A stretch of 64,000 nucleotides of DNA from an uncultured Acidobacteriota bacterium (lineage in GTDB: Bacteria > Acidobacteriota > Thermoanaerobaculia > UBA5066 > Gp7-AA6): contig CAWDSI010000005.1 of assembly GCA_963804915.1 (NCBI GenBank), positions 46,271-110,270 on the forward strand, read 5' to 3'. How positions within the stretch are numbered: position 1 is the first letter of the stretch; each line of letters begins with the position of its first letter. Positions 1-47,468 of this stretch are shown here, one piece after another. The notes beneath the pieces are model-generated. The model did not search any database, was not told the DNA's origin, and was given only the letters and a program-made list of their open reading frames with translations. The translations under genes and the position numbers were made by a program.

Positions 1-2186
1 ACGCCGTACACGCCGATGGCCGAGAGCAGGAGCGCCGCGGCCGCGAAGATCGCGAGCAGCTGCATCGCGGAACGGCGCTCGGCGACGGTCGAGGCCATCG
101 CGTCCTCGATCGACCGCACGCCGTAGATCGGCAGCTCGGCGTCGAGCGCGCGCACGCTCGAATCCAGCACCGTGGCCAGGGACGCCGCCGAGGCGCGGCC
201 CCGGACGACGAAGGTGAAGTCGGGGCTGACCGCCTGGAGCATCGGCCGGTAGTACATCGGCCGGTCCTCGAGGGCGAGCGATTCGGTCTTCACGTCGCCG
301 ACCACGCCGACGATCGTGATCCACGGGATCGTGTCGACGAGCTGGCGGTCGGCCGTCGCCCGGGCCTGCGGCTGGGCGTTGCCTGGCCGCACGCGCCGGC
401 CGATCGGATCCTCGCCTCCGAAGAACTGGCGGGCGAACGCCTCGCTGACGATCGCGACCGGCGCGCCCTGCGCGTCGTCGTGCTCGGTGAAGGCGCGGCC
501 GCGCTTGAGGGGAATTCCGAGCGTGTCGAAGTAGCCGACGCTCACGCCCGAGGTCTCGGAGATCACGATGCCGCCCTGATCCGGATCCCGGCCCTCGATC
601 AGCAGGCGCGCCCGCGACCGGCCGTTTCCGAACGGCACGCGGGTCGCTCCGGCCGCGGAGGAGACTTCCGGAAGCGACCCGATGCGTTCGATCGCCCGGC
701 GGTAGAAAGCCATCTGAGACGCGGGGGTGAAGTAGCGGCCGGTCTCGCGGACGTCCGGTTGAGGCAGCCACACGCCGGCCGTCGTCACGCCCTTCGGGTC
801 GAACCCCGTCTCCACTCCCTGGAGACGCCAGAGCGTGCGGACGAGCAGGCCCGCGGCCACGAGCAGCACGAGCGCGAGCGCGAACTCGCTGACGACCAGG
901 GCGGAGCGGATCCGGCGGCCGGCGCGGCTCGAGGCTCCGCGGGAGCTGTCGTTGAGGGAAGCGCCCGGACGCGAGCTCGTCCCCTGGAACGCGGGGGCGA
1001 GGCCGAAGAGGACGCCCGTGAGGAGGGACGCGCCGAGCGCGAAGACGAGCACGCGGGGATCGAGACCGACCTCGGCAAGCCGCGGAAGGCTCGAGGGCAG
1101 CACCCGCGTCAGGACGTCGACGCCGAAGGCGGCGAGGAAGAGCCCGAGCGCTCCGCCGAGAAGCGCCACGACCATGCTCTCGGTGAGCAGCTGACGGATC
1201 AGACGGCCGCGGCCGGCGCCGAGAGCCTGCCGCACCGCGATCTCCCGGCGGCGGGAAGACGCCTTGGCGAGGAAGAGATTCGCGACGTTGGCGCAGGCAA
1301 TCAGGAGCACGAAGGCCACGGCGGCGAGGAGGGTGACCAGGACGGGACGCACGCGGCCGACGAGATCGTCCTGAAGCGGCAGGACGCGGGGCGCCCAGCC
1401 GTCGGCCTCGGGATAGTCGCCCGGGAACTCCTTGCGAAGCTGAACGGCGAGCGCGTCGAGGCGCTTCTGCGCCGCCTCCACCGTGACGCCCGGGGCGAGA
1501 CGCGCGAGCGCGCCCTGGAGGAAATACGCGCGACGGTTCGGGCCCTGAAAGGGCGCTCCGAGCCAGCCGGACGGCGCCCAGATTTCGACGTCGGTTTCGA
1601 TGGCGCGCCCCGGGTGGCGGAAGCCCTTCGGCGCGACGCCGATGATCGTGCAGAGGTCGTCGTCGATGCGCAGAGGCTTGCCGACGACGTTCGGGTCCGC
1701 GCCGTACCGCCGGCGCCAGAATCCGTCCGAGAGAACGACGACGTCGGCGATCCCGGGGTCGTAGTCCTTCTTCTCGAAGAGGCGGCCGACCTGGGCCCGG
1801 GCGCCGCCGAGGACGTCGAAGTACTCGACGTCCATCAGCAGCACTTCCACGCGCTCGGGGCGGTCGCCTCCGGTCACGTTGGCGTTGATGCGGTACAACC
1901 CCGAGATCGCGGTGAAGGCTCCGGTGCGTTCGCGGTAGTCGAACATCTCGGGAGCGGAGAGACCGACGTCGACTCCGCCGCGCTTGACGAAGTCCGAGGT
2001 GATGCGCACGAGCTCTCCCGGCCTGGCGAAGGGGAGGGGCCGCAGGAGGACGGCGTTCACGACCGAGAAGATGGCCGCGTTGGCGCCGATCCCCAGCGCC
2101 AGCGTCCCGATGGCGACGGCGGCGAAGCCCGGGTTCTTTCGAAGCATCCGCAGCGCGTATCGCAGGTCCTGGCCGAGCGTGTTCAT
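1..2186 (-). CDS. ADOP-family duplicated ABC permease (MacB-like), 3' end outside window
   Basis: Read manually (absent from the ORF track because it has no stop in the window): MNTLGQDLRYALRMLRKNPGF...[24 protein letters not shown]...RREIAVRQALGA, open to base 3 (LLSAIGVYG); GGAGGAG RBS upstream. Confidence 0.93.
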   Translation of the reverse strand, partial: MNTLGQDLRYALRMLRKNPGFAAVAIGTLALGIGANAAIFSVVNAVLLRPLPFARPGELVRITSDFVKRGGVDVGLSAPEMFDYRERTGAFTAISGLYRINANVTGGDRPERVEVLLMDVEYFDVLGGARAQVGRLFEKKDYDPGIADVVVLSDGFWRRRYGADPNVVGKPLRIDDDLCTIIGVAPKGFRHPGRAIETDVEIWAPSGWLGAPFQGPNRRAYFLQGALARLAPGVTVEAAQKRLDALAVQLRKEFPGDYPEADGWAPRVLPLQDDLVGRVRPVLVTLLAAVAFVLLIACANVANLFLAKASSRRREIAVRQALGAGRGRLIRQLLTESMVVALLGGALGLFLAAFGVDVLTRVLPSSLPRLAEVGLDPRVLVFALGASLLTGVLFGLAPAFQGTSSRPGASLNDSSRGASSRAGRRIRSALVVSEFALALVLLVAAGLLVRTLWRLQGVETGFDPKGVTTAGVWLPQPDVRETGRYFTPASQMAFYRRAIERIGSLPEVSSAAGATRVPFGNGRSRARLLIEGRDPDQGGIVISETSGVSVGYFDTLGIPLKRGRAFTEHDDAQGAPVAIVSEAFARQFFGGEDPIGRRVRPGNAQPQARATADRQLVDTIPWITIVGVVGDVKTESLALEDRPMYYRPMLQAVSPDFTFVVRGRASAASLATVLDSSVRALDAELPIYGVRSIEDAMASTVAERRSAMQLLAIFAAAALLLSAIGVYG

Positions 2187-2260
2187 GGGATCTCCTCCGT
2201 CATGGGATGCGCGAGTCGGTCCGCAATGCTTCGATCGGGTCGATATTCGAGGGAGATCAT
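2183..2260 (-). other. 25-aa linker ORF MISLEYRPDRSIADRLAHPMTEEIP, possible degraded permease remnant
   Basis: ATG 7 nt after the upstream stop; TGA overlaps the next ATG (ATGA); RLAHPMT weakly resembles the ADOP C-terminal RxDPMT. Confidence 0.35.
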
Positions 2261-2267
2261 GGGCGCC

Positions 2268-4709
2268 TCACTCGGATCGCAGAGCCGTGGACGGATCGAT
2301 GCGTGCCGCGCGGCGGGCGGGCGCCCACATCGCGAGCGCCGCGGCGGCAGCCAGGACGGCGACGACCGCGACGAAGGTGATCGGGTCGGCGGGCGTGACG
2401 CCTCGCAGCGTCGCGCGCAGCCAGCGCGTCGCGGCGAGAGCGGCGCCGACGCCCGCGGCGAGGCCCAGCGCGACGGGCGGCACGCCGTGCCGGGCGGTCG
2501 CGACGATGATGTCGCGCGCGCTGGCCCCGAGCGCGATGCGCACGCCGAACTCGGCGGTGCGGGCGGCGACGAAGTAGGAGACGATGCCGTAGATGCCCAC
2601 GGCGGCGAGGAGCAGGCCCACGATGCCGAGCGAAGCGAGCAGGATCGTGGCGAAGCGTTCCTGCGAGAGGGACTCGCGGAGCCGTTCGTCCATCGTCCGC
2701 AGTTCGTAGACCGGAACCCCCGGCGCGACCGCCTGCACCGCGGCGCGCATCGGACCGGCGAGCGTTCCGGCGTCGCCGTTGCGCGCCTTCGCGACCAGCG
2801 TGACCGAGCGCTGCACCCAGTTCCATCCGTCGGTCGGGGTCTGGCCGATCGGGAGATAGAACTCGGGATAGGCATCCTCGCCGAGGCCCCGCGAATGCGT
2901 GTCGCCGGCGATGCCGACGACCGTCTTGAACATGGGGTCCTCCGGAGAGCCTTCGCAGCAGGCGACGCGTTTTCCGATCGCGTCCTGGCCCGGCCAGAGG
3001 CGCCGCGCCAGGCCGTCGCTCATGATCATGACCCGGACCGCTCCGGCCGCGTCCCGTTCGTCGAAGCCGCGTCCGCGAAGAAGCGGGATCCCCATCGTCT
3101 TCAGGTAGCCGGACGTGACGATCCGCAGGCGCGCGTCCACGGCGTTCTTGATGTCGAGCTCCGCCGCCTCGGCGACGATCCCGTTGGAGTTGCCGCCCGG
3201 ACCGAGCGGGACCTGCGTCGTCAGCGCCGCGGACGCGACGCCCGGCGCGCGGCCGAGCTCCTCGACCACCTGCGACAGCGCCCGCGAAACGGAGCGGGGG
3301 TCTTCGTAGGCGGCGCGGGGGAGCGAGATGCGCGCCGTGAGAATGCCTCGGGGATCGAAGCCCGGGTCGACGCGCTGCAGGTGCATGGCGGTCCGGATCA
3401 GAAGGCCGGCTCCGGCGAGCAGCGGGAGCACGAGGGCGACCTGTCCGGCCACGAGCACGGTGCGGACGCGATCGCGTCCGGCGCCGCCCCCGTACGTCCC
3501 GCGTCCCCCTTCCCGCAGCCCCGTCTGGAGGTCGCCGCGGGAGGCGCGCACGACGGGCGCCAGGCCGAAGAGGACCGCGCTCAGGACGGAGACCGCGAGC
3601 GCGAAGGCGAGGGCGATGCCATTCACTCCGGCCTGCTCGATGCGCGGCACGTCGCCGGGGCTCGCCGCGACGAGCGCCCCGACCGCGGCCGACGCGAAGA
3701 GGATGCCGAGGGCTCCGCCGGCGAGGCCGAGCAGGAGATTTTCCGTCAGGAGCTGCCGGGCGATCCGGCCCCGCGAGGCGCCGACCGCCGAGCGCACCGT
3801 CAATTCGCGGGCGCGGAGCGCGCCGCGGGCGAGGAGCATGTTGGACACGTTGATGCAGGCGATCAGGAGCACGAGCCCGACGGCTCCGAAGAGGATCCAG
3901 AGCCGGTCGGAATAGTCCTCGACGAGGATTTCGCGCATCGGCTGGATCTTGAAGTCGCGCTCGGCCGCATCCTGCGGGTGGAGCTTGCGGATCCCGGCCA
4001 TGATGGTGGAGGCCTCGGCCTGCGCCCCGGCGACGGTCGCGGCCGGGCGGAGGAGCCCCGACACCACGAGATTGTGATTGTCGTGGTCCGCGAGGGTCTC
4101 CGGCGTGAACGCCGCCGGGATCCAGAGCTCTTCATTCTCGCGGGCGTAGTCGAAGGCCTTCGGCATCACTCCGACGACGGTATAGAGCTCGCCGTCGAGA
4201 CGGATCGTCCGGCCGAGGATGTCGCGGGCCGCGCCCAGCCGCCCGGACCAGAGCCGATGGCTCAGGACGACGACGCGCTCTCCTCCCGGACGGTCCTCCT
4301 CGGGCCGGAACACGCGGCCGAGCGCGGGAGCGACGCCGAAGACGGTGAAGAAGTCCCGCGTCACGCGCGCGCCGAGGACGCGTTCCGCCGAGTCCCCGAG
4401 GGCGATGTTCAGGTTCGCGTAGCGCGCGCCGGCGAGGGCGTCGAAACTCTTGCTGTCTCGCTGGAGATCCGCGAGCATTCCCGCGGCGACGTTTCCCCGG
4501 CGGCCCTTCCACATTTCCATGACGGTGACGATCCGCTCGGGATCCGCGAAGGGGAGCGGCTCGAGCAGCACGGCGCGCACGAGACTGAAGATCGCCGTGT
4601 TCGCCCCGATGCCCAGGGCGAGGGTGCCGATCGCGACGGCGGCGAAGCCCGGGCTCTTGCGGAGCATCCGCGCGGCATAGCGCAAGTCCTGCAGAAAGGT
4701 TTTCATCAT
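2268..4709 (-). CDS. ADOP-family duplicated ABC permease, 813 aa
   Basis: [17 protein letters not shown]-terminus, two periplasmic+FtsX halves, C-terminal [17 protein letters not shown]. Confidence 0.95.
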
Positions 4710-4795
4710 TCGCTCCTGAGTACCTGTACGGGATCGAGCCGGGACGCTCGCCGCGCCCGGAGGGCCTGCCGAACGTCGTGCGTCAGAAAGGTCAT
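4706..4795 (-). pseudogene. 29-aa internally deleted ADOP permease remnant [29 protein letters not shown]
   Basis: First 13 aa match the ADOP N-terminal motif (QDLRYALR), last 16 aa match the C-terminal motif (ARRAxRxDPxxALRSE); GAGGAG RBS; stop overlaps the next ATG. Confidence 0.85.
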
Positions 4796-4821
4796 GGGCG
4801 GCTCCTCACTCGCTCAGCTCT

Positions 4822-7299
4822 CTACTCCGTGCGGAGGGCGGTCATCGGATCGACGCGGGCGGCACGCTCGGCCGGCACGGCGCTCGCGGCGAGCACGGCG
4901 CCGCCGAGGATCGCGGCGGCGACCAGGTAAGAGGCCGGATCGAAGGGCGAAATGCCGAAGAGAAGCGGAGCGGCGAAGCGGGACGCCGCGCCCGCCACGG
5001 CGAGTCCGGCGGCGAGCCCGGCGACGGCGAAGCGCACGCCGCGCGACAGGACCAGGCGTCGCACGCTTCCGGCCTGGGCCCCGAGCGCGAGGCGGATGCC
5101 GAACTCCCGGGTCCGCGCCTGCGTCGCGTACGAGACGACGCCATAGAGCCCGGTGGCGGCGAGCACCAGCGCGAGCACGGCGAATGCGCCCACGAGCCAC
5201 GCGAGCAGCCGTCCCTGTCCGAGGGACAGCCCGAGCTTCTCCTCGAGCGTGCGGACGTGGAAAAGCGGGAGCTCGGCGTCCAGCGCGCCGACCGCATCGG
5301 CCAGGGGCTTGCGCAGCGCCGCGGGGTCGACACCGGCGGCGGCGTCGAGCAGGATCATCATCCGCGGCGTATAGAACTGCGAGACCGGGACGTAGACGGT
5401 GGGGTCCGGCGCGCGGCGCAGACTGCGGAAGCGCACGTCCTTGACGACGCCGATGATCTCGCCGCCCACGCCCGGGGGGCCCAGGTTCATGATCCGCCGC
5501 CCGACCGGGTTCTTCACGCCCGGCCAGTAGCGACGGGCCATGCTCTCGCTGATGATCGCGACCTGCGTGCTCGTCGGGGTGTCGCGCGCATCGAAGTCGC
5601 GGCCGGCCACCAGCCGGGTCCCCAGCGTCTCGAAGAAGCCCGGCGTCACGATGTTGAGATCCGCCTGCGGGATTTCTCCGGCGATCGGTGTGTAGCCGTC
5701 ACTCTCGATCGACGTGCGCATGCCGGAGCGCTGGACGGGAAGCGTGCGCCCGAGCGCGGCCGATCGCACGCCCGGGATGCTCCGAAGGCGCGTGAGAAGC
5801 TCGGGAAGGAACGCCCCTCCCCGCTCGCGGTCGTAACCCTGCTTGGAGAGATCGATCGACGCCTCGAGCTTGCCCGTGGTCGCGAACCCCGGATCGACCT
5901 TCGCCTCGCGCGCCAGCGTTCGCCCCATCAGACCCGCGCCGACCAGGAGGACGGCGGTGAGCGCGATCTGCCCGACGACGAGCGCGTCGCGAAGCGTGAG
6001 CCGGCGAGACAGGCGCGGACCCGAGGCGTCCTTCAGGGAGGCCAGGACGTCGAGGCGACCGGCGCGCGCGGCGGGCGCCAGGCCGAAGAGGAGCGCCGAA
6101 AGGAACGCGGCGCCGCCCGCGAAGGCGAGCGCGCGCGTGTCGAGGATCCCGGAGGCGGCGCCGACCGGCAGAGCGAACTCCGGCGGCACCGCCGAGGCGA
6201 GCAGGTCGGCGGCCCAGACGGCGAAAAAGAGGCCGGCCGCCGCGCCGAGCCCGGCGAGCAGGAGACTCTCCACGAAGAGCTGGCGCGCGAGCTGGCGGCG
6301 CGAAGCGCCCAGCGCGAGGCGGACGCCGATCTCGCGCCGCCGGCGTTCGCTTCTGAGGAGCAGCAGTCCGGCGGCGTCGGCGCAGGCGATGAGGAGGACG
6401 AGGCCGGCCATCCCGAAAAGGAGCCATGAGATCCGCCGGGCTTCCGCCTTTGCGGCGGGACCGACGGCGAAGTCGGCGGCGGGCACGACGCGGGCCATCG
6501 GATCCTGGTGGTCCTCGGGCTGGCCGGCCGCTCGCCGCTTCGCGATCGTGTCGAGCTCGGCCTGCGCGCGTTCGCGCGTCACGCCGGGCGTCAGCCGGGC
6601 CACGATGTCCAGCCACGACAGGTTCCGGCCGACGAGGATCTTTTCCGCGGCGAACTCGGGCAGCGCCTGGTCGACCATCGCGATCGGCACCCAGAGGTCC
6701 GGCAGGAAGTCGAGGCTGACGCCCGTAAAGGAAGGTTCCGCGACTCCGACGACCGTGAATGGATGGCCGTTGAGGCGGATCGTCTCGCCGACGGTCTCCG
6801 GCGCGGCGCCGAATCGTTTCCGCCACAGCCGGTGGCTGATGACGGCGACAGGATGGGCGCCGGGCACGCGATCGTCCGCGGGGGAAAGCAGCCGCCCGCG
6901 TGCGGGCCGCGCGCCGAGCAGCTCGAAGAAGCTCCCGCTGACGAGCGCCCCGGTCACTCGCTCCGCGGTCCCCCCGGAGCCGCTCGAGAGGTGAAACGCC
7001 TCGCCTTCGTCGTACGCCGCGATGCCGGCGAAAGACGTCGCGGCGTCGCGATAGTCGGTGAAGACGGGGTAGGAGGAGTTCGAGAGCTCGATGCCCTCGA
7101 CGTCGGTCGCGTAGACCCGAACCAGGGACGCCGGGTCCCGCACCGCGAGCGGGCGGAAGAGGACCGCGTCGACGATCGAGAAGATGGCGACGTTGGCCCC
7201 GATGCCCAGGCCGAGCGTCAGCACCGCGAGCACGGCGAAGCCCGGGCTGCGCCCGAGCATCCGGATGGCGTATCGCAGGTTCTGTCCGGGGATCCTCAT
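4822..7299 (-). CDS. ADOP-family duplicated ABC permease, 825 aa
   Basis: NLRYAIRMLGRSPGF, LLIACAD, RREIGVRLALGA, C-terminal RAARVDPMTALRTE. Confidence 0.95.
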   Translation of the reverse strand: MRIPGQNLRYAIRMLGRSPGFAVLAVLTLGLGIGANVAIFSIVDAVLFRPLAVRDPASLVRVYATDVEGIELSNSSYPVFTDYRDAATSFAGIAAYDEGEAFHLSSGSGGTAERVTGALVSGSFFELLGARPARGRLLSPADDRVPGAHPVAVISHRLWRKRFGAAPETVGETIRLNGHPFTVVGVAEPSFTGVSLDFLPDLWVPIAMVDQALPEFAAEKILVGRNLSWLDIVARLTPGVTRERAQAELDTIAKRRAAGQPEDHQDPMARVVPAADFAVGPAAKAEARRISWLLFGMAGLVLLIACADAAGLLLLRSERRRREIGVRLALGASRRQLARQLFVESLLLAGLGAAAGLFFAVWAADLLASAVPPEFALPVGAASGILDTRALAFAGGAAFLSALLFGLAPAARAGRLDVLASLKDASGPRLSRRLTLRDALVVGQIALTAVLLVGAGLMGRTLAREAKVDPGFATTGKLEASIDLSKQGYDRERGGAFLPELLTRLRSIPGVRSAALGRTLPVQRSGMRTSIESDGYTPIAGEIPQADLNIVTPGFFETLGTRLVAGRDFDARDTPTSTQVAIISESMARRYWPGVKNPVGRRIMNLGPPGVGGEIIGVVKDVRFRSLRRAPDPTVYVPVSQFYTPRMMILLDAAAGVDPAALRKPLADAVGALDAELPLFHVRTLEEKLGLSLGQGRLLAWLVGAFAVLALVLAATGLYGVVSYATQARTREFGIRLALGAQAGSVRRLVLSRGVRFAVAGLAAGLAVAGAASRFAAPLLFGISPFDPASYLVAAAILGGAVLAASAVPAERAARVDPMTALRTE

Positions 7300-7308
7300 C
7301 GGTTCACC

Positions 7309-9742
7309 TCACTTCCGCAGGGCGGTCACAGGGTCGAGGCGCGCGGCGCGCCGGGCCGGAAACCAGTGCGCGGCGAGCGCGGCGGCGGCGAGCACGGCGG
7401 CCGCGGCCGCGAGGGAGACGGGATCGCCCGGACGAACCTCGTAGAGGATCGCCGCGAGGAAGCGCGTCGCGCCGAACGCACCGAGCAGCCCCGCGGCCAG
7501 CCCGAAGGCGATCAGGCCGGAGCCGCCGACGAGCACGAGGCGGGCGATGTCGCGGGGCGTCGCCCCGAGGGCCATGCGGATTCCGATCTCGCGGGTGCGC
7601 TGTCCGACGGAGTGCGCGACGACGCCGTAGAGGCCGAGAGCCGCGAGCGCCAGCGCGGCGAGGGCGAACGCCCCGAGGAGCCGCATGACGAAGCGCCGCG
7701 GGGCGGCGGAACGCGCCACGCGCTCGTCCATGGAGGCGACGTCGAAGATCGGGACTCCGGGATCGAGGGCGTGAACCTCGCTGCGAATCGACGCGGTCAG
7801 ACTCGCCGGGTTCGCGGTCCGGGCGAGGACCACGAGGCTCAGCAAGCCGTCGGTCACCTGCGCCTGAGGCAGATACATCTGCGGCGTCGGGGCGAGGGCG
7901 ACGTCCACGTGCCGCACGTCTCCCGCGACGCCGACGATCGTTCGCCAGGGGCCCTCGTCGGAGGCGCCGATCCGGACGCGCTCGCCGATCGGATCGCGCC
8001 CCGGGAACAGTGTCCTCGCGGTGGACTCCGAGACGATCATCACCGGCGGCGAGTCGGCCCGGTCCTCCGCCGTGAACGCCCGGCCGCGCCGGAGCGGGAC
8101 GCCCATCGCACGGAAGTAGTCGGGCGTCACCGAGTAGCGCTCGACCGAGGGATCCTCCGCCGGGTTCGGTCGCATGCGTCCCTCGACGTGGAACCCGTAG
8201 GAATCCCCGTTGCCCCCGAGCGGAACCTGGGACACGAGGGCGACCGCCTCGACCCCCGGAAGCGCGCGCACGCTTTCGAGCAGGCGGTCCTGGAACGTCA
8301 CGACGGCGGCGTCGGTGGTCGCGTCTGCGGGCGTGGCCAGGCCGAGGGTCAGCACGCGGTTGGTCGAGAAGCCGAACGGCGTATCGAGGAGCCGCGCCAT
8401 GCTGCGCACCATGAGGAACGCGCCCGAGACGAGCATGACCGCGAGGGCGAGCTCCGCGACAGTCAGGATCCGGCGCGCCCGCGAGACTCCGGAAGCGGCG
8501 CTGCCGCGCGACTCCGAGGCGAGGGTCGCCGAGAGGCGCGCCGCGGAAGCCCGGAGGGCCGGGACGCCCCCCGACAGAAACGCCGCCGTGAGCGAGGCGA
8601 GGGCCGCGAAACCGAGGACCCGCGCGTCGATCGCGATCTGGCTCCGCGCGCGGCAGCGAGACCGGTGCGAGGCGCAACAGCGTCGACTGGAGCAACCCGG
8701 CGAGCAGAAATCCGAGCGCCCCGCCGGCGGCGCAGAGGACGAGACTCTCTGCGAAGAGCTGCCGGACCAGGCGTCCGCGGCTCGCACCGAGGGCGCTCCG
8801 AATGGCGAGCTCCGGACCGCGGCGGAGCGAGCGGGCGAGCGTCAGGTTCGCGACGTTGGCGCACGCGATGAGCAGGACGAAACCGACGGCGCCGACGAGA
8901 ACGATGAGCGGCGTTCGCAGCCCGGAGGTCACCTCGCGCGAAAGGGGAGCGACGTCCATGGAGCCTTCCGCGTACTCCTGCGGATGCTCGAGCGCGAGTC
9001 TCCGGCGGATGCCGTCGAGGTCCGCCCGAGCCTGCTCGAGCGTCACGCCCGGCGCCACGCGGCCGAGGGCCTTCAGGTGCTGGCAGCTGTGGCAGGCCTG
9101 CGGAAGGCTGAGGTCGTAGCCGATGGGGGCCCAGAGCCGCGCCGGCTTGTAGTAGCGGGCCGAGACCAGGGGCTCGAAATCGGGGGGAAGGACGCCGATG
9201 ACGCGGTAGCTGTTCCCGTCCATCCGGACGACGCGGCCCACGACCGACGGGTCCGCGCCGAAGCTCTGGCGCCAGAGCCCGTCGCTCAGGATGACGACGC
9301 GCCAGGAGTCCGGGCGGTCGTCCTCCGGACGGAAATCCTGGCCGAGCGCCGGACGCACGCCCAGCATCGAGAAGTAATTCGCGCTCACGCGCATCGCGGG
9401 AAGGAGCTCGGCGACGCCGTCGGTCACGAGCGTGGGTTGCCAGAACCGGACGGCCGCCATCGTGTCGAACGTGCGGTTGCGGTCGCGCAACTCCACGTAG
9501 TTCGCGAAGCCGACGTTGCCCGGAGAGCCGCCTCCGGGCGACTCGTTCCGGTCGCCGACCATCACCAGACGGTCGCCGCCGGCATACGGAAGCGGCCGCA
9601 GGAGCACGGCGTCGAGGACCGAGAAGATCGCGGTGCTCGCGCCGATCCCGAGGGCCAGCGTCGCGAGCGCGACGGCCGCATACCCCGGGCTCTTCCGCAG
9701 CGTTCGTGCCGCGTAGCGCAGATCCTGGAGGAATCCGTTCAT
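7309..9742 (-). CDS. ADOP-family duplicated ABC permease, apparent frameshift near 8645
   Basis: N-half in ORF 7304..9742 ([20 protein letters not shown]...LAPVSLPRA), C-half in ORF 7309..8787 ([11 protein letters not shown]...[10 protein letters not shown]). Confidence 0.9.
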
Positions 9743-9752
9743 CGGTGCGTCC

Positions 9753-10418
9753 TCAGTCGTTGACGATCCAGCCGTCGCGCAGCCGCACGATCCGGTCTCC
9801 GTAGGACGCGTTGTCCTCGGAGTGCGTGACCTGGATGATCGTCATGCCCTCGGCGTTCAGCGACTTGAAGAGGCGCATGATCTCGCGCCCCTGGTCCGTA
9901 TGGAGGTTGCCGGTCGGCTCGTCCGCGAGCAGGAGCTTCGGCTTCGCGATGAGCGCGCGGGCCACGCCGACGAGCTGCTGCTGGCCGCCGGAGAGCTGGT
10001 TGGGGAAGAGGTCCTTCTTGCCGACGATCTGGAATCGGTCGAGCGTGTCGGCGACGATGGCGGCCCGCTCCGAGGCCTTCACGTTGCGGTAGGAGAGCGG
10101 GATGTCGAGGTTCTCGGCGACCGTGAGGTTGTCCAGCAGGTGGTACTGCTGGAAGACGAAGCCGACGTACTTCTTGTTGAGCTCGATGCGCTCCCTCGGC
10201 TTCATGCGGTGGACGTCGTGCTCGAGGAGCCGGTACTCGCCGGCCCAGTCGTGATCGAGCATCCCGAGGATCGAGAGGAGCGTCGACTTGCCGGCGCCCG
10301 AAGGGCCCATGATGGTCACGAACTCGCCGGGCTGGATCGAGAGCTGGATCCGGCGGAGCAGGAAGATCTGGCCGGCCTTGCTGGCCACGGACTTTTCGAG
10401 GTTCGAAAGCTGAATCAT
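9753..10418 (-). CDS. ABC transporter ATP-binding protein (MacB/LolD type), 221 aa
   Basis: Walker [17 protein letters not shown] signature, [11 protein letters not shown]-loop VTH. Confidence 0.96.
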
Positions 10419-10425
10419 GATTCGT

Positions 10426-12852: not shown

Positions 12853-12862
12853 TGGCTTTCTC

Positions 12863-15254: not shown

Positions 15255-15262
15255 GCCTCCTC

Positions 15263-15349
15263 CTACTCCGTCTTGAGAGCCGGCATCGGCAGCAGGCGTG
15301 TCACGGCGAGAGCCATCAGGCCTCCCGCGGCACGCGCGAGCGAGCTCAT
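15263..15349 (-). pseudogene. 28-aa ADOP remnant [28 protein letters not shown]
   Basis: ATG overlaps the upstream stop (ATGA); ALAVTRLL resembles the penultimate TM motif (ALALSRLL in a neighbour); PMPALKTE resembles DPMTALRTE; followed by the GGAGGAGG RBS of the next gene. Confidence 0.7.
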
Positions 15350-17838: not shown

Positions 17839-17840
17839 GG

Positions 17841-28122: not shown

Positions 28123-28146
28123 CGGTGCGGGTCCTCCACCGGGTAG

Positions 28147-28176: not shown

Positions 28177-28213
28177 TTTCGAGGATTCGACCTCGGCCGG
28201 GCCGCGGAGGGCT

Positions 28214-29266
28214 CTAGGCGGGCGTGCGCTCGGGTGCCTGCGGTGCGGACCAGCGAAGCGATTCGTCGAGCCGTCCCGAAGCGAGGAGTCCGCGGAGGCT
28301 GTCGATCCTCCGATACTTCGGTCCCTCGAAGTCTTCGAGTTTCAGGTCACTCTTCCGATAGGCCTCGTAGAGCTCGCGGGCGCCGTCCCGCACCGTCCAC
28401 TTCGGACGGAAGGCCGGAACCTGCCGTGCGATCTTCTCGAAGCTGACGCGGTAGGAGCGGGTGTCGGGACCGGCGCCTTCGGCAAATTCGATCTCGCAAT
28501 TCGGGACCGTCTCTCCGACGATCTCGGCGATCTGGCGGATCTGGAAGTTCTCGTCGGTGCGGCCGACGTTGAAGACCTCGGCGTGCACGGCCTCGCGCGG
28601 CGCCTCGAGGACCGCGAGAAACGCCCGCGAGATGTCCTCGATGTGGACGAGCGGACGCCAGGGGGTGCCGTCGCTCTTGAGATGGATGCGGCCTGTGGTC
28701 ACGGCCCAGGCCGCCAGGTTGTTGAGAACGATGTCGAAGCGGTGCCGGGGGGACACGCCGTATGCCGTGGTCGGACGCAGGAACGTCGGACTGAACGCCG
28801 CATCGGCGAGCGCGGAGATGTCGTCCTCCGCGCGCACCTTCGAAACGCCATAAGGCGTCACGGGGTTCAGCGGCGACGTCTCGTCGACCATGGCACCTCC
28901 CGCGGCGCCGTAGTTGCTGCAGGAGGAGGAGAACAGGAAGCGCGGAACGCCCGCCGTCTTTGCGACGCGGGCCAGATGCACGGACCCGCGGTGATTGATC
29001 GCATGGGTCACTTCCGGGTTGAGGTCGCCGAGAGGATCGTTCGAGAGGGCGGCCAGGTGGACGACGGCGTCGAAGCCTTCGAGGTCTGCCGGGGTCGCTT
29101 CGCGCAGATCGCGGCGAATCGTCGGGATCTCCGGAACCGACCCGACGAAGGTGCAGGCCGCGTAGAAATCGGTGTCGAGCCCGACCACATCGTGGCCCGC
29201 AGCCGAGAGCATCGGTCCCATGACCGTGCCGATGTAGCCCCGGTTCCCGGTCAGGAGAACGCGCAT
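28214..29266 (-). CDS. NAD-dependent epimerase/dehydratase (extended SDR)
   Basis: [10 protein letters not shown] Rossmann motif, [20 protein letters not shown] catalytic motif. Confidence 0.93.
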
Positions 29267-29382
29267 GCGGGCCGAAGAGTAACAGGGCCGAAACCGGTCG
29301 TGAGGGCCTCCTCAGAAAAGATCGCCGGGCTGGTGTCGTTGCGATCCGCCGCGGGCGGAGCCGCGCGGCTGGTCCCCGCGGC

Positions 29383-30360: not shown

Positions 30361-30362
30361 CC

Positions 30363-30436
30363 TCAGTCCTTCAGGGCGTCGGCGAGGACGGAGATGTCCT
30401 GCTCTGCCCGCAGCTGCCGGTGAGGAGGATGCGCAT
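30363..30436 (-). pseudogene. Remnant of a paralogue of the 28214..29266 epimerase
   Basis: MRILLTGSCG (cf. [10 protein letters not shown]) followed, in a shifted frame, by RAEQDISVLADA (cf. [12 protein letters not shown]) and a stop. Confidence 0.7.
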
Positions 30437-30437
30437 G

Positions 30438-31448: not shown

Positions 31449-31476
31449 GACTGAGTTGCGTTCGAGTGTAGATGCA

Positions 31477-31507
31477 GAAAAAATAAGGAAATATGACTAT
31501 ATTTCCT
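31477..31507 (-). terminator. Possible intrinsic terminator (or operator) after folD
   Basis: 9-bp inverted repeat AGGAAATAT-N4-ATATTTCCT (31486-31507) right after the stop, followed on the minus strand by TATTTTTT. Confidence 0.45.
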
Positions 31508-31509
31508 AA

Positions 31510-32439: not shown

Positions 32440-32484
32440 CGGACGAGGATATCCGGACTACGCAACGGCCTCAGCCTCGGTGCT

Positions 32485-35230: not shown

Positions 35231-35235
35231 CCGCG

Positions 35236-39685: not shown

Positions 39686-39704
39686 CGGCTTCCGCCGTCG
39701 CCGC

Positions 39705-39785
39705 GTGATCGACCTTCACCTCCACCGCCGCCCGGGCTTCGACGACGGTCCGAGCGGCTTCGAGACGTCCCCGACAGAACGATGA
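39705..39785 (+). pseudogene. 26-aa N-terminal stub of a CpsB/CapC-type PHP tyrosine phosphatase
   Basis: VIDLHLHRRPGFDDGP matches the family start MIDxHxHILPGxDDG; sits directly after wzc; stop overlaps the next ATG. Confidence 0.75.
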
Positions 39786-40534: not shown

Positions 40535-40551
40535 TCGCCCGAACAGGCGCG

Positions 40552-40609
40552 TGTTATACTCCCCGCTCAAACAAAAAAGCCTCGTAACTACAGCGAGATA
40601 GCTGTAGTT
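40552..40609 (+). promoter_or_regulatory. Extended -10 promoter and leader hairpin upstream of the NusG paralogue
   Basis: TGTTATACT (TGn-TATACT) followed by AACTACAGC-GAGATA-GCTGTAGTT (40586-40609). Confidence 0.55.
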
Positions 40610-40630
40610 TGCGGCGGAGGGGGCTGGGAC

Positions 40631-41218
40631 GTGCCTCTGTTGAGACGAGGCCCTGAGGTTTTTCCTCAGAGCCTCTTCGACTTGTCGTCGGCCGAATTCC
40701 CCTGGATGGTCGCCCAGACGCGGAGCCGCCAGGAAAAGGCGCTCGTCCGCAACCTCGAGCCCCTCCGCGTCCCGTTCTATCTCCCGCAGCACGAGCGGCA
40801 TGCGGCCCGCTCCGGCCGCCGATTCGTCTCGTTCATCCCCCTGTTTCCGGGGTACGTGTTTCTGCGGGCGGATCCCGGCGCCCGGACCGCCGCGCTCCGG
40901 AGCGGCCTGGTCGTCCGGCTGCTCGAGGTCCGGGATCAGGAGCTCCTCCACGCGGAGCTGCGCCAGCTCCGAAAGCTCCAGCAGACCGGCGCTCGCCTGG
41001 TGCCCTATGCCCCCCTCGTCGAGGGAGATCTCGTGACGATCGCGGAGGGTCCGTTCCGGGGTTACCGGGGGCGCGTCCTGCGCGAGCAGTCCTCGTCGCG
41101 GCTGATCGTCTCGGTTTCCATGCTTCGCCAGAGTGTCGCCGTCGAGTTTGACCGGTCCTCTCTCAACCGGGTATCCGGGGACGCGAGGACCGTTGCGGAA
41201 CAGAGCGCCGTCGCCTAG
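40631..41218 (+). CDS. NusG paralogue (RfaH/UpxY/LoaP-like transcription antitermination factor)
   Basis: WMVAQTRSRQEK, PLFPGYVF (NGN domain), GDLVTIAEGPFRGYRG (KOW domain). Confidence 0.93.
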   Translation: MPLLRRGPEVFPQSLFDLSSAEFPWMVAQTRSRQEKALVRNLEPLRVPFYLPQHERHAARSGRRFVSFIPLFPGYVFLRADPGARTAALRSGLVVRLLEVRDQELLHAELRQLRKLQQTGARLVPYAPLVEGDLVTIAEGPFRGYRGRVLREQSSSRLIVSVSMLRQSVAVEFDRSSLNRVSGDARTVAEQSAVA

Positions 41219-41320
41219 GCACGCCGACAGCGGCGTCGTAAAGGGAGTTTTCACGTCGGTGGTGTACACCGAAGGGGGCGAAGCCCGGACGACGGGCCGC
41301 CCGGAGAGGAACCGAAGCGG

Positions 41321-42653
41321 GTGACCGAACCGATAGCGCACTCAGAGAGCCTCCAGAGACGGTTCGACGACCAGTCGGCGGTCATCGGCATCGCCGGCCT
41401 CGGTTACGTGGGCCTGCCCCTGGCGCTGACATTCACGGAGAAGGGCTTCCGCGTTCTGGGGTTCGACATCGACGGTTCCAAGGTCGAGTCGTTGAACGCC
41501 GGGCGCAACTACATTCAGCACCTCGACGGGAAGCGGCTATCCACGGCGGTCGCGGAGAAGCGTTTCGAGGCGACGACCGATTTCGGCCGGCTCCACGAGC
41601 CCGACGCCTTGATCATCTGCGTGCCGACCCCGCTGACGGCCCAGCGCGAGCCGGACATGAGCTACGTCGTGAACACGGTCCGGTTGATTCGTGCCCGGCT
41701 GAGGCCGGGACAGCTGGTCGTCCTCGAGTCCACGACGTACCCGGGCACGACCGACGAGCTGGTGCGGGGAATCCTCGAGGAGTCCGGCTTGAAGTGCGGG
41801 AGCGACTTCTACCTGGCCTTCTCGCCCGAGCGCGAGGACCCCGGTAACAGAAAGTTCAACACGGCGACGATCCCGAAGATCGTCGGGGGCGTCGACGAGA
41901 CCGCCGGCGATCTCGCCCAGAGTCTGTACGACAAGGTCGTGGTGCGGACGGTCCGCGTCGGGAGCGCGCGCGAAGCCGAGGCGGCCAAGCTCGTCGAGAA
42001 CATCTTTCGCGCCGTCAACATCGCCCTCGTCAACGAGCTCAAGATCGTCTTCGACCGGATGGGCATCGACATCTGGAACGTGCTCGACGCCGCCTCGACG
42101 AAACCGTTCGGCTTCATGCGGTTCAACCCCGGACCGGGCTGGGGCGGCCATTGCATTCCCGCTCGACCCTTTCTATCTCTCCTGGAAGGCCCGGGAGTAC
42201 GGCGTGACGCCGAAGTTCATCGAGCTCGCCGGCGAGGTCAATGTCCAGATGCCGGAGTACGTGATCACCAAGCTGAGCCTGGCCCTCAACGACCGCCGGA
42301 AAGCGATGCGAGGCAGCCGGATCCTCGTCCTCGGGATCGCCTACAAAAAGGACATCGACGACCCGCGCGAGAGCCCGGCCTTCGAGATCATCGAGAGCCT
42401 CCTCCACCTGGGGGCCGAGGTGACCTACCACGACCCGCACGTCCCGAAGGCTCCGCGAATGCGCTCCTGGCCCGACTTGCCGCCGATGACGTCCTCGCCC
42501 CTGACGGAGGAGGTCCTGCGGTCGCAGGACGCCGTCGTCATCGTCACAGATCATTCCGCCGTCGACTACGAGGCCGTCGTCCGCCACGCCGGTCTGGTCG
42601 TCGACACCCGCGGTGTATATCGGGCGCCGCGCCCCAACGTCGTCAAGGCATGA
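41321..42653 (+). CDS. Nucleotide-sugar dehydrogenase (UDP-GlcNAc 6-dehydrogenase WbpA/WecC-like), apparent frameshift near 42159
   Basis: [41 protein letters not shown] then [20 protein letters not shown]. Confidence 0.92.
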
Positions 42654-42694
42654 TTCCCGCATTAGTCGCCGGGGCCCCCGGGAGAATTCGATGA
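42650..42694 (+). other. 14-aa linker [17 protein letters not shown], possible SDR N-terminal remnant
   Basis: ATGA overlaps at both ends; LVAGAPG resembles LVTGAAG. Confidence 0.4.
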
Positions 42695-43651
42695 GACAAG
42701 GACAACTCGTGCTCGTGACCGGCGCCGCCGGCTTCATCGGGTCGCATCTGGTGGACGCGCTCCTGGCCCGGGGAGCCCGGGTCCGGGGAATCGACGACTT
42801 TTCCAACGGAAAGCGGTCGAACCTTGCGCACTGCGCGGACCGGATCGAGCTTCTCGAGGCGGACATTCGCGACGCCGAGGCTTGCCGCAGGGCGTGCGCC
42901 GGAGCCGCCGTCGTCTTTCACCAGGCGGCCCTCGGTTCGGTGCCGCGGTCGATGAAGGACCCGGCGACCAGCGATCGCCGTCAACGTGGCCGGGACCGCC
43001 AACGTCTTCGCCGCGGCGCGCGATGCCGGAGTCCGGAGAGTCGTCTATGCCTCCTCCTCCAGCGTCTACGGCGACAGCACGCGGCTGCCCAAGAAGGAAG
43101 GGGAGGAGGGCCAGCCGCTCTCGCCCTACGCGCTCTCGAAGGCCATGAACGAAGAGCTCGCCGGCGTCTTCGCCCGTTGCTACGGCATGGAGCTCGTCGG
43201 GTTGCGCTACTTCAACGTCTTCGGCCCGCGGCAGGATCCGGACGGGCCTTATGCCGCGGTCATCCCGCGCTTCTTTCGGGCGTACCTGGCCGGCGAGGCC
43301 CCGGTCATCTATGGCGACGGCACGCAGAGCCGGGATTTCACTTATGTCTCCGACGCGGTGGATGCGAACCTGCGGGCGGCGGACGCCGACGCGACAGCCG
43401 CCGGCCAGGTCTACAACGTCGCGGGAGGACAGGTGATCTCGGTCAACGAGCTCGCGGCGGCGGTCGGGGACGCGGTCGGCGGCGGACAGGCGCCGCGCTA
43501 CGAAGCGCCACGGGCCGGCGACGTCATGCACTCGGCGGCGAGCCTCGAGCTCGCCGGGAAATGGCTGGGCTACCGTCCCGCGGTGGGCATCGCCGAGGGC
43601 CTGGCGAGATCCCTGGACTACTACCGTTCTCTGGTGGAGGCCGGCGTATGA
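42691..43651 (+). CDS. NAD-dependent epimerase (WbpP/TviC-like UDP-HexNAc 4-epimerase), apparent frameshift near 42972
   Basis: [56 protein letters not shown]. Confidence 0.92.
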
Positions 43652-44955
43652 CGAAGGGCAGCGTGGCGGTCCGCGTTCGGGAGCTCTCCAAGGAGTACCG
43701 GATCGGTCACCGCATCGAGCGCTACAAGACTCTGCGCGAGTCGCTCGCCTCCCTGGTCAGTGCTCCGGCCCGGCTCCTGCGTCGCCGTCGGCGTTCCGAT
43801 GAGGGCGACGATTTGCTCTGGGCGCTGCGCGACGTCAACTTCGAAGTCCGCCAGGGCGAGGTGGTCGGAATCGTCGGCCGCAACGGAGCGGGGAAGAGCA
43901 CGCTGCTGAAGATCCTGGCCCGGATCACGGATCCGACGCACGGCACCGCCGAGATCCACGGACGCGTGGGCTCGCTCCTGGAAGTCGGCACGGGATTCCA
44001 TCCCGAGCTCACCGGACGCGAAAACATTTACCTCAACGGCGCGATCCTCGGCATGCGCCGGGCCGAGATCGGCCGGAAATTCGACGAGATCGTCGCTTTT
44101 TCGGAGGTCGAAAAGTTCATTGACACTCCGGTCAAGCGCTACTCGAGCGGCATGTACCTGAGGCTCGCGTTCGCCGTCGCGGCGCATCTGGAGCCGGAGA
44201 TCCTGCTCGTCGACGAGGTCCTCGCGGTCGGCGATGCCGATTTCCAGAAGAAGTGCCTCGGCAAGATGGGAGACGTCGCCGAGGAAGGCCGCACCGTGCT
44301 TTTCGTCAGCCACAACATGCCGGCCGTGCAGGCCCTGTGCGCGCGGGCGATCCTCCTGCGCGCGGGCACCGTCGCGGTCGACGGTTCGACCGGAGAAGTC
44401 CTGAGGGAGTACCTGGGGCACCTGCTCGCGACCGCCGCCCACGCCTTCGAGGACAATCCCGACCGACGGGGAGACGGAAGCGTGCGGTTGACGGCGGCTC
44501 GTGTGCTCGACGAGGAGGGCCGGCCGTGCGAGCGGGTCGTCGCCGGAAAGCCGATCACGCTCGAGTTCTCCTACGAGAACCCGATCGGCGCGGAGCGGTT
44601 CGATTTCGCGCTCGCGATCGTAAATCATCTCAATATCGGCGTGGCACACATGAGCACTCCGATCGCAGGCTTCTCCATCGTGGCCGGTGCAGAGGGCGTG
44701 GTCACGTGCCGGATCCCGACCCTGCCCCTGCCTCAGGGTGAGTATCGTGTCGTCACGAACTTGAGATACCAGGGCCAGCAAACGGACCACATTCCCAACG
44801 CGTTGGCTTTCAGCGTCGAGAGCTCGGTCTTTTTCAAGACAGGGCGCGTGCCCAAGATCGAGTACGGCGCGGCCCTCTTCGCGCACGAATGGGGACATCA
44901 AGCCGGGCAAGTGGCTTTGACGGACGGTGCGGTCAACGTCCGGATGCCGGGGTAA
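43648..44955 (+). CDS. Polysaccharide ABC exporter ATP-binding protein (Wzt-like) with C-terminal domain
   Basis: [41 protein letters not shown]; start MTKGSV at 43648. Confidence 0.93.
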
Positions 44956-45032
44956 GGGATTCGACGATTGCGAGAGCGGGTCCGGATGCCGAAGGGCGGT
45001 CTCGTCGGCCGGTTCTTCAACGACGGTCGAGC

Positions 45033-46358
45033 GTGAAGATCCTGGTGTACAGCGGCAGTTATGCCCTCAACAACCTGGGTGACGTTGCGATGCTCCAGGT
45101 GGCCGTGTCGCGTCTTCGGGCTTCCTGGCCGGAGGCCGATGTGCACGTCCTGACGTCCTCGCCCGAGCTGCTATCGCGTCATTGTCCGGGTGCGATCCCG
45201 GTGCCCTCGAATGGTCTGCGTAAATGGTTGGAGTGGAGTCGCGTGCCGGGCCGCGCCCGGGTACCCCGCGCCGTGTCCCGCCGCCTCGCGAGAAACGATG
45301 CGAGATTCCGGGATCATCTTCCCGCCGTCAGTGACGGCCTGGCGTTGCGGTGGGGCCGGATTCATCCGAGCGATCACGCCGACGTCGAGGCCTTTCTCGG
45401 AGTGGTCAACGCGGCCAACTTCCTCGTCCTTGGCGGCGGCGGGTACATCACGGATTTGTTTCGAGGGCAGGCCCGGTCTTCCCTCGAGCTCCTGAGCCGC
45501 TTCCAGCGGCGACAAGTTCCGACCGCGATGCTCGGGCAGGGGATTGGACCTCTTTCCCACCCGGTCCTTCTCTCGCGCGCACGAGAGGTCTTCCCGCGTG
45601 TCGGCGTCATCGGCGTTCGGGAGGGTCTTTCGACGTTGCCGTTTCTCGCGTCGATCGGTGTGGTCCGGAAGCAAATTCGAGTGACCGGAGATGATGCGAT
45701 CGAGCCGGCGTTCGCGGTCCGTCCCGAGCGGCTCGGCGCGTTCCTCGGCGTGAACGTTCGGGTTTCGAGTTACTCCAACGTGGGCGTCGGCGCTCTGGAG
45801 GACGTCCGTCGGGCGCTGCGGAACGCGGCGGAGGCCGTGGGAGCGGCTTTTCGGCCGGTCCCCATTTCGACGGCGGCCGGAGATTCGGACGTGCAGTCCC
45901 TCCGTGAGCTCCTGCCCGACGCGTTCGCGTCCGATGCCCCGGAGAACGTCGACACTCCCCTTGCCCTGATGCACCGGGTTGGCGAATGCCGGGTCGTCGT
46001 GACGGGGAGCTACCATGCCGGGGTTTTCGCACTGGCGCAGGGAATACCCGTGGTCGGCCTGACGCGCTCTTCCTACTACACCGACAAGTTTCGCGGTCTG
46101 GAGGATCAATTCGGCGGCGGCTGTCGCGTCGTGTCTCTCGACCAGCCGGCAATCGTCGAGGTCCTATCGGCCTCGGTCCAGGATCTCTGGCGGGAAGCCG
46201 ACGAGCGCCGGCCCGCGTTGCTCAGCGCGGCGGCCCGGCAGATCCAGGAAAGCCAGGCGGCCTACGCGAGCCTTCGGTCTCTCGTCGATGTCCGTCCACC
46301 CGCCGGCGCGACGCTGTCCGCCCTCGCCGGGAGAGTCGTTGATGAGCCGCACTCCTGA
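45033..46358 (+). CDS. Polysaccharide pyruvyl transferase family protein
   Basis: NNLGDVAML, LGGGGYITD, GQGIGP, VREGLS, GSYHAGVFALAQGIP. Confidence 0.85.
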   Translation: MKILVYSGSYALNNLGDVAMLQVAVSRLRASWPEADVHVLTSSPELLSRHCPGAIPVPSNGLRKWLEWSRVPGRARVPRAVSRRLARNDARFRDHLPAVSDGLALRWGRIHPSDHADVEAFLGVVNAANFLVLGGGGYITDLFRGQARSSLELLSRFQRRQVPTAMLGQGIGPLSHPVLLSRAREVFPRVGVIGVREGLSTLPFLASIGVVRKQIRVTGDDAIEPAFAVRPERLGAFLGVNVRVSSYSNVGVGALEDVRRALRNAAEAVGAAFRPVPISTAAGDSDVQSLRELLPDAFASDAPENVDTPLALMHRVGECRVVVTGSYHAGVFALAQGIPVVGLTRSSYYTDKFRGLEDQFGGGCRVVSLDQPAIVEVLSASVQDLWREADERRPALLSAAARQIQESQAAYASLRSLVDVRPPAGATLSALAGRVVDEPHS

Positions 46359-47448
46359 ACGGCTCGATCCGCCGAGGGTGACCGTCCTGATGGCGGTCTA
46401 CAACGGGCAGGATCATGTCCGGCAGGCGGTCGAGGGGATCCTGGCTCAGACGTTTTCCGACTTCGAATTCATCATCGTCGACGATGGCTCCACGGACGAA
46501 ACGTCTCGAGAGCTCGACGCGTTCACGGACTCGCGAATCGTGAGACTGAAGCACGAGAGCAACCGCGGTCTCATTGCCGCCTTGAACACCGGGCTCGCAG
46601 CGGCTCGCGGGGAATTCGTCGCCCGCCAGGACGCCGACGATTTTTCCTATCCCGGGCGCCTGCAGGCTCAGGTGAACTTTCTCGAGGCGCGAAGCGATGT
46701 GGCCGTCGTCGGAACGGACACCGTGTTCGAAGGCTGGGAGGGTGGGGGCCGCACGAACCGGATCGTGGAGCGAGATCCCTTGCGGCTCGCCTGGATCCTC
46801 CTGTTCTACTGCCCCCTGACCCATTCCTCCATCATGTTTCGCACAGCCGTGATCCAGGAGGTCGGCGGGTACAACGGGGACGACGTCCATGCCGAGGACT
46901 TCGGACTCTGGGCGAGGGCCGCGCGATCGAGCCGGGTCGCGACTGTGACCGGCACGCACGTCCTCCGACGGCGCCCCCCGGGAAGCATCACGGAGCGATG
47001 GAGCGTGGAGATGGGGAGGGCGGCGCGGAGAGTCAGTCTGCAGAACCTGCGCTGGGTTTTAGGGACGACGGCATCCACCGCCTCGCTCGACACCCTCGAG
47101 GCGCTGTTCGGGAATCGTTTTCTCGGCTTGGCGGACGCCGCGCGTCTCGATATGCCGGCGCTCCGGTCGAGCATCTCTCAACTTTTGAACGCCTTCTCCG
47201 CCAGATTCGGTTTAGAACAGGATGGCTTCGGATTCCGGCGGTGGGCATGTCAGTGGATGAGCGCAGCGCTTCTTCGCAAAAGCCAGAGGCTACTGCGAGA
47301 GAGCGCGACTCGCTCCGGGGGAGACCGGGCGCTCGGCCTTCGAACGGCACGGACCCTGATCGTCAATGCGATCAAGCTGAGCCCGGCGGTGATCGCCAGT
47401 CGGACGGGAGCGGCGGCGGCTCTTCGGGCCATGTTGAGCCACGCATGA
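46342..47448 (+). CDS. Glycosyltransferase family 2
   Basis: VTVLMAVYN, IIVDDGSTD, NRGLIAALN, ARQDADD, AEDFGLW. Confidence 0.93.
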   Translation: MSRTPERLDPPRVTVLMAVYNGQDHVRQAVEGILAQTFSDFEFIIVDDGSTDETSRELDAFTDSRIVRLKHESNRGLIAALNTGLAAARGEFVARQDADDFSYPGRLQAQVNFLEARSDVAVVGTDTVFEGWEGGGRTNRIVERDPLRLAWILLFYCPLTHSSIMFRTAVIQEVGGYNGDDVHAEDFGLWARAARSSRVATVTGTHVLRRRPPGSITERWSVEMGRAARRVSLQNLRWVLGTTASTASLDTLEALFGNRFLGLADAARLDMPALRSSISQLLNAFSARFGLEQDGFGFRRWACQWMSAALLRKSQRLLRESATRSGGDRALGLRTARTLIVNAIKLSPAVIASRTGAAAALRAMLSHA

Positions 47449-47468
47449 ATTCCATCGTGGTGCCATGA
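47445..47468 (+). other. 7-aa linker ORF MNSIVVP
   Basis: ATGA overlap with both the upstream stop and the downstream start. Confidence 0.35.

Follow-up and report, generated by a model that had tools for sequence, protein, structure and literature searches.

A 64,000-nt stretch of DNA from an uncultured Acidobacteriota bacterium (G000:C5:46271-110270, G+C content of ~70%; hereafter the window) contains seven short segments, which we call stubs 1 to 7, that fill gaps between operon genes. Comparison with related genomes leads us to read stubs 1 to 5, with moderate confidence, as what remains of resident genes in two tightly packed operons after large internal deletions, any role in relaying ribosomes being a by-product, and stubs 6 and 7 as products of chance. 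For the five putative relics, an origin by internal deletion with the old start and stop codons kept is well supported by synteny, in that full-length or longer versions are found at the same positions in genomes of the same genus, among them G031, whose identity to the window is 95 to 99%. The source, genome G000, is a metagenome-assembled genome of 39 contigs with a completeness of 81%, and close relatives of it are other uncultured Acidobacteriota, some of which carry the label Thermoanaerobaculia.

The stubs had been listed in an earlier note, made from the letters of this DNA, as seven short open reading frames (ORFs). All seven lie at the positions given there and six are complete ORFs of 7 to 29 codons, whereas stub 4 (30363 to 30436; 74 nt) is not one ORF. 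The claim that six of them have ATGA-type overlaps holds: stubs 1, 2, and 5 overlap the downstream start, stub 3 overlaps the upstream stop, stubs 6 and 7 have overlaps on both sides, and stub 4 has none. The note had recognized four pieces of deleted genes from three families; the number of families was right, but we count five pieces, three from ADOP permease genes and one each from an NAD-dependent epimerase gene and a CpsB/CapC phosphatase gene. Its proposal that the stubs are products of internal deletion agrees with the synteny of stubs 1 to 5 and fails for stubs 6 and 7, where shuffled sequences and, for stub 6, a GCA/GCC codon difference speak against it. The leftovers do keep the ancestral start codon, stop codon, and junction to the next gene, as the note had suggested, and they record former operon content that ordinary annotation misses.

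Putative relics of ADOP permease genes

Stubs 1 to 3 lie in an operon on the minus strand (positions 1 to 24800) that, judged by Pfam and NCBIfam matches and by its junction sequences, encodes an HlyD-like adaptor, two ABC ATPases, and nine ADOP permeases. The permease genes are ~810 to 830 codons long, and MacB_PCD and FtsX domains were found in all nine; TIGR03434 (ADOP) scores are 899.8 bits for A2 and 1002.1 bits for A5, against a cut-off of 622.3. Spacers in this array range from a 4-nt overlap to 11 nt, apart from the gaps filled by stubs 1 to 3, which measure 81, 112, and 91 nt.

Stub 2 (4706 to 4795, minus strand) appears to be the relic of an ADOP gene, which we call W: 13 N-terminal codons are fused in frame to 16 C-terminal ones, and the stop overlaps the A2 start (ATGA). 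Full-length W is found directly upstream of the A2 ortholog in G016, G001, G003, and G031, with matching termini and the identical overlap. The W permeases of G016, G001, and G003 share the last 16 residues of stub 2 and an ATGATG junction, and the N-terminal residues of the G003 protein are those of stub 2. The C part of the stub scores 28 bits with a C-terminal hidden Markov model (HMM) that we built here.

Stub 1 (2183 to 2260, minus strand) is probably what is left of a second ADOP gene, Y, with the start and ~4 codons followed, in another frame, by the last ~15 codons. Because of this change of frame the ORF overruns the old stop and ends beyond it, at a TGA that overlaps the A1 start. 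In G001 and G031, a full-length ADOP gene lies between the A2 and A1 orthologs, and its first codons and C-terminal coding sequence are the same as those of stub 1; the C part of the stub matches the C-terminal HMM in another frame (13 bits). G031, which is 95 to 97% identical to G000 near stub 2, has 2,365 nt more at stub 1 and 2,333 nt between the two aligned halves of stub 2; W and Y each switch frame once in G031, and these sizes are accurate within 1 nt.

Stub 3 (15263 to 15349, minus strand) is a candidate in-frame relic of a third ADOP gene, V. Its ATG overlaps the A7 stop, and its own stop is followed by GGAGGAGG and then by the A6 start. No full-length gene was seen at this site in relatives, only longer or different relics in G031 and G001. 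In G031, the site holds a 51-codon in-frame relic with an ADOP-type N terminus, which aligns to stub 3 across gaps of 87 and 18 nt and matches it at 61 of 69 aligned bases; in G001 it holds an in-frame relic of 23 codons that joins N- and C-terminal ends (an N+C relic). G003 has no relic there and an A7-A6 spacer of 8 nt. Stub 3 and the N part of stub 2 fall below the HMM threshold; they align instead to the G031 relic and to the ortholog termini, respectively. AGGAG-type motifs occur within the last codons of W or just past the stops of stubs 1 and 3.

The A7 ortholog of G003 (G003:C7 near 725,300) ends in a C terminus otherwise known from the G001 stub-3 relics. In G003, recombination between neighboring paralogs, whose 3' ends are similar, may have excised the lost gene cleanly.

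Several further features of the array were recorded. The conserved ADOP gene end Arg-Ser-Glu-stop is encoded as AGGAGCGAATGATG, which also supplies the next permease gene with its Shine-Dalgarno sequence and overlapping start; junctions of this type were seen at 4706 to 4720 in the window and at equivalent places in G014, G007, G016, and G001. Compared with G031:C2:45812-75522, the array (window positions 1 to 23000) is a mosaic, with gene-by-gene identity running from 71% to 97%. The G031 array has no ADOP4 and carries ~6.9 kb of additional DNA between the ADOP6 and ADOP5 orthologs, including another ADOP5-like gene, and gene content of the array varies among all genus members examined. HlyD-ABC-ADOP arrays also occur in Verrucomicrobiota (Opitutaceae, Lacunisphaera; loci L070-L128), with adaptor identity of 52 to 57%.

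Putative relics in the polysaccharide locus

The second host operon belongs to a polysaccharide locus at 28 to 64 kb with genes for Wza, Wzc, UDP-glucose dehydrogenase, epimerases, Wzm/Wzt, and glycosyltransferases. Stub 5 (39705 to 39785, plus strand) lies downstream of the Wzc-like kinase gene and is a likely relic of a CpsB/CapC tyrosine phosphatase gene, with ~21 N-terminal codons and a few more retained in frame, ending in the ancestral stop that overlaps the next gene's start at 39782. The whole gene, of 254 codons, follows the Wzc ortholog in G007 and matches PF19567 with 158.2 bits over profile positions 1 to 233; its first ~20 codons are as in stub 5, and it has a GTGA overlap with the next gene. 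Against a cut-off of 27, stub 5 itself reaches 13.1 bits with this profile (positions 1 to 22; E value of 0.065). G031 has the same stub with four substitutions. At this site G002 has a different ORF of 17 codons with an identical ATGA ending, and the G000 and G002 sequences are too diverged for single indel sizes to be read from their alignment.

Stub 4 (30363 to 30436, minus strand) is best described as a probable twice-eroded relic of an NAD-dependent epimerase paralog, in which ~9 N-terminal codons are joined to an internal piece in another frame. Its 74 nt thus hold two frames: the ATG frame stops 11 nt short of the end given for the stub, and that end is the stop of the other frame. The stub begins 1 nt past the upstream stop. 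At the same site, between flanks of 97 to 99% identity, G031 has 405 nt more, and its sequence there is an N-terminal piece of an epimerase gene, 480 nt long and with 79% identity to the 5' part of the gene at 28214 to 29266. We had also considered stub 4 as a remnant of a gene of ~600 codons, found in G004 and G002 upstream of the deacetylase-like ortholog, and dropped this candidate in view of the epimerase fragment in G031. A synteny comparison with G006 at this site gave nothing usable.

Chance ORFs in ordinary spacers

Stubs 6 and 7 arose by chance from ordinary spacers between ATGA-type junctions. Stub 6 (42650 to 42694, plus strand) covers a 37-nt spacer between a UDP-glucose dehydrogenase gene and an epimerase gene, and stub 7 (47445 to 47468, plus strand) is a 7-codon ORF that spans the 16-nt spacer separating two glycosyltransferase genes and has ATGA at either end. 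We assign both to chance because equivalent ORFs appeared in 91% (stub 6) and 100% (stub 7) of shuffled spacers. Moreover, the ATG of stub 6 is made by a synonymous GCA (Ala) codon, which is GCC in G004, G007, G002, G009, and G014, and the spacer is homologous in these five genomes. Stubs 5 to 7 are unchanged in G031, apart from the substitutions in stub 5.

At the dehydrogenase-epimerase site (equivalents of 42653 and 42691), the two genes are separated in G014 and G018 by one of ~510 codons that encodes a polytopic membrane protein. There are ~1.6 kb of additional DNA in G003, and the spacer is only 37 to 55 nt in G000, G031, G007, G002, G004, and G009. A link between stub 6 and the membrane protein of G014 and G018 was dropped, as no similarity was seen.

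The test against chance covered the 17 same-strand gaps of at least 16 nt in the window, with 2,000 shuffles per gap. ORFs that bridge the gap were observed in 9 of the 17, compared with 4.9 expected. Gaps without relics had such an ORF in 4 of 12 cases (3.9 expected) and thus show no excess; the whole excess comes from the relics. All five relic gaps contain a bridging ORF (per-gap P values of 0.08 to 0.29, summing to 0.96); for these gaps the shuffle is an unfair null, because start and stop were inherited by descent. A scan with the sigma-70 consensus, which may not fit this phylum, found no promoter-like or terminator-like sites inside any stub gap.

Recurrence and reading frame of N+C relics

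Further relics were sought with profiles of ADOP N and C termini, built here, in two sets: the whole G000 genome with twelve same-genus arrays (125 full-length genes) and 75 further loci (131 full-length genes). The first census returned 10 N-to-C pairs that span less than 1,900 nt, five of which were dropped as weak mid-gene matches within full-length genes, and the census was supplemented by junctions read by eye. Fourteen of 18 N+C ADOP relics are in frame. The count draws on related genomes that do not represent independent cases (a single origin is probable for L061 and L062), and some of its members were picked out by eye; very short ends escape the profiles, and one-base errors in long-read assemblies can make in-frame relics appear broken. 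The in-frame relics are stub 2 of G000, four in G001, two in G018, and one each in G003, G012, G014, L066, L061, L062, and L106; those out of frame are stub 1 of G000, a 566-nt relic on G000 contig C36, and one each in L068 and L069. We left out of the count the stub-3 site of G000 and G031, where one of the G001 relics also lies, as well as small in-frame relics from L065, L069, and G007 and a C-terminal relic in G017 that has no start codon. The L061 and L062 sequences are too diverged for single indel sizes.

The relics range from 12 to ~180 codons. In G001, a chain of three in-frame relics joins an ABC ATPase gene to the next intact permease gene via TGATG and 2-nt junctions. Since L106, a Verrucomicrobiota array, contains an in-frame N+C relic, the pattern is not limited to one phylum. 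One apparent C-terminal relic, at G000:C27:112140-112300, was rejected; it reflects the tandem duplication of 45 nt from an ADOP gene's 3' end, with the stop codon, and not a deletion.

We examined 82 intact ADOP genes for direct repeats shared by the first and the last 330 nt; these are in phase in 41% of cases at a repeat length of 2 nt, 45% at 3 nt, 52% at 4 nt, 58% at 5 nt, 63% at 6 nt, and 75% at 8 nt, a bias that arises because third codon positions are ~90% G+C. Repeat-mediated deletion in these genes predicts that 41 to 63% of relics should be in frame. A null of one-third therefore overstates selection, given that short direct repeats are in phase far above that level.

DISCUSSION

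The deletions that we postulate would have removed ~2.3 kb from each ADOP permease gene and ~0.7 kb from the CpsB gene, and would have proceeded in several steps in the epimerase gene, leaving the first 4 to 21 codons and the last few to ~16 codons. The ends would survive because only deletions that spare the neighbors persist. The upstream stop lies 1 to 26 nt before the stub start codon or overlaps it, and the next gene's Shine-Dalgarno sequence would lie in or just past the last codons of the lost gene, as in the codons for the ADOP C terminus. Only deletions with both ends within the gene would then leave the neighbors intact, and the design of non-polar scars uses the same logic (PMC8547470). 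The resulting mini-ORFs would inherit the old ribosome-binding site, start, and stop-start junction without having been made for any purpose. The relics are probably translated, with ribosomes handed over at the old junction; we infer this step and do not take it as established as the reason for the relics.

We considered whether the stubs might instead be collapses or mis-joins in an error-prone metagenome assembly, with full genes present in the real genome. G000 does contain errors. A codon-usage scan, which counts sites where the coding signal changes frame without a stop, found 1,118 candidate frame breaks genome-wide, some of them in essential genes; adk, map, rpoA, and secY are split between frames, and rpoB is intact. 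Sites in the window lie near 8642, 13312, 14872, 15060, 26875, 34608, 35832, 36235, 42170, 42975, 61708, and 63259, and five of them coincide with 1-nt indel differences from the near-identical G031; the breaks in the window include one in ADOP4, three in ADOP6, one in the dehydrogenase gene, and one in an epimerase gene. These breaks are probably assembly errors, and therefore the two "broken" ADOP genes, the dehydrogenase gene, and the epimerase gene are probably intact in life. Stubs 1 and 2 were, in addition, seen in G000 only. A search of sequencing runs listed 20 from soil and rhizosphere (nine studies) that contain 24 to 39% of the words sampled from window positions 1 to 10000; we give these shares no weight as evidence. 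The errors observed are 1-nt indels, however, which call for caution about single-base frame calls in G000 and do not explain losses on the kilobase scale, and collapse is unlikely because ADOP paralogs are only ~35 to 45% identical in protein. Stubs 5 to 7 are the same in G031, relics of other sizes occupy the stub-3 and stub-4 sites in G031 and G001, and the same relic form occurs in more than 10 other assemblies, including the short-read L061 and L062. We consider an artifact of assembly very improbable. It seems just as far-fetched that the relic ORFs have a function of their own, as small membrane peptides or leader peptides. The longer in-frame relics (55 to 180 codons) do join the first and last permease transmembrane segments, but sequences vary between genomes (the stub-3 site differs among G000, G031, and G001, and stub 5 between G000 and G002), the sizes span the whole range given above, and some relatives have no relic whatever.

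A more serious alternative, which the note had proposed, is that deletions leaving a translated, in-frame mini-ORF at the old junction were favored, keeping termination-reinitiation coupling and avoiding Rho polarity, and that the relics have been maintained since. We regard this account as doubtful, although several observations weigh in its favor and against the view that the relay is a by-product. The in-frame share of 14 of 18 is higher than expected for random end points (33%; P of ~0.0001) or for repeats of 2 to 3 nt (p = 0.41 to 0.45; P of 0.001 to 0.005, the latter at p = 0.45). Junctions that can be read against G031 have microhomology of ~2 nt (stubs 1 and 2) or 0 to 5 nt (stub 4), so few shared nucleotides that a purely mutational account may fall short. 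The two length differences that separate stub 3 of G000 from its G031 counterpart are each divisible by three. The gene that follows stub 5 lacks a recognizable Shine-Dalgarno sequence (no GGAG-like motif within 20 nt of its start) and keeps an upstream ORF ending in ATGA in G000, G031, and G002. Taken together, the frame excess, the short microhomology, the stub-3 differences, and the stub-5 context favor some selection to keep frame. The three-relic chain in G001 is also in line with a relay, as is the effect of engineered scar peptides on downstream protein levels (PMC8547470). Against a selected relay, direct repeats of 5 to 8 nt are in phase in 58 to 75% of cases, and at the values for 5- to 6-nt repeats (p = 0.58 to 0.63) the frame share is not significant (P of 0.07 to 0.15); the excess does not clearly go beyond repeat phase bias, and the 18 relics are neither independent nor all found by profile. 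Two of the five relics in the window are out of frame, and the G017 relic is start-less. Several genomes do without a relic at these sites: the A2-A1 spacer is only 13 to 16 nt in G016, G014, and G003, and G003 also lacks a relic at the stub-3 site. The stub-4 precursor, as seen in G031, was already frame broken and still lost a multiple of three (405 nt), which points to mutational phase bias. Finally, relics go on shrinking between near-identical genomes, as the stub-3 gaps and the 405 nt lost from stub 4 in G000 illustrate. Selection for ribosome relay is thus possible, and we continue to prefer deletion relics whose relay role is a by-product.

The broader idea that operons shape gene death, with selection keeping mainly "non-polar" deletions and in-frame micro-relics being held as relays for the next gene, strikes us as somewhat unlikely. 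If it were true, relic chains such as that in G001 would be functional operon parts as well as a readable fossil record of lost genes.

The putative relics would document, at the level of single bases, which genes a large and rapidly changing permease array of soil Acidobacteriota has lost in recent times, and simple N- and C-terminal profiles suffice to find them. They also provide a natural setting in which to test whether gene loss is constrained by polarity and translational coupling, an idea used daily in knockout design. They further carry a warning: in DNA of 70% G+C, spacers flanked by ATGA read as ORFs by chance. In the literature covered, to which subscription journals did not belong, we found no description of natural in-frame N+C relics inside operons and no comparative study on polarity or translational coupling as a constraint on gene loss.

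Comparison with known systems

Engineered in-frame, non-polar deletion scars of the Keio design retain a gene's start codon together with its final codons (PMC8547470). Like these scars, the stubs amount to a short in-frame peptide with the downstream ribosome-binding site kept, so that coupling would be expected to persist. Unlike the scars, they are natural, vary in size between 12 and ~180 codons, and are in some cases out of frame, and their effect on downstream expression is a prediction. A 34-residue scar is reported to be too short in many cases (PMC8547470), a caveat that bears on stubs of 7 to 29 codons.

Small ORFs borne by MIRUs and "ribosome-delivering" short upstream ORFs are, according to a review, believed to hand ribosomes on while hardly affecting the expression of their neighbors (PMC12548453). 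They resemble the stubs as short ORFs amid operon genes, with starts and stops at or overlapping the stops and starts of their neighbors. MIRUs, however, are inserted repeat elements, whereas each stub appears to consist of the two ends of a different resident gene, and for this reason we attribute the stubs to deletion rather than insertion. The same alignments, each to a different gene's ends, do not support MIRU-like repeat copies, although no dedicated repeat search was run. Six of the seven stubs share their junction geometry with termination-reinitiation coupling at ATGA/TGATG overlaps (PMC6728339, PMC10666635), which has been shown for real gene pairs; the stub mini-ORFs are known from their sequence alone.

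Price, Arkin and Alm (2006; PMC1480536) described how neutral deletion forms close or overlapping operon spacings, such that canonical overlaps need not be selected. As in pseudogene erosion by deletional bias, stepwise deletions in the window would shrink dead DNA until the neighbors are hit. That work concerns spacers between living genes, where only 34% of spacing changes are multiples of three, whereas the relics described here are mostly in frame.

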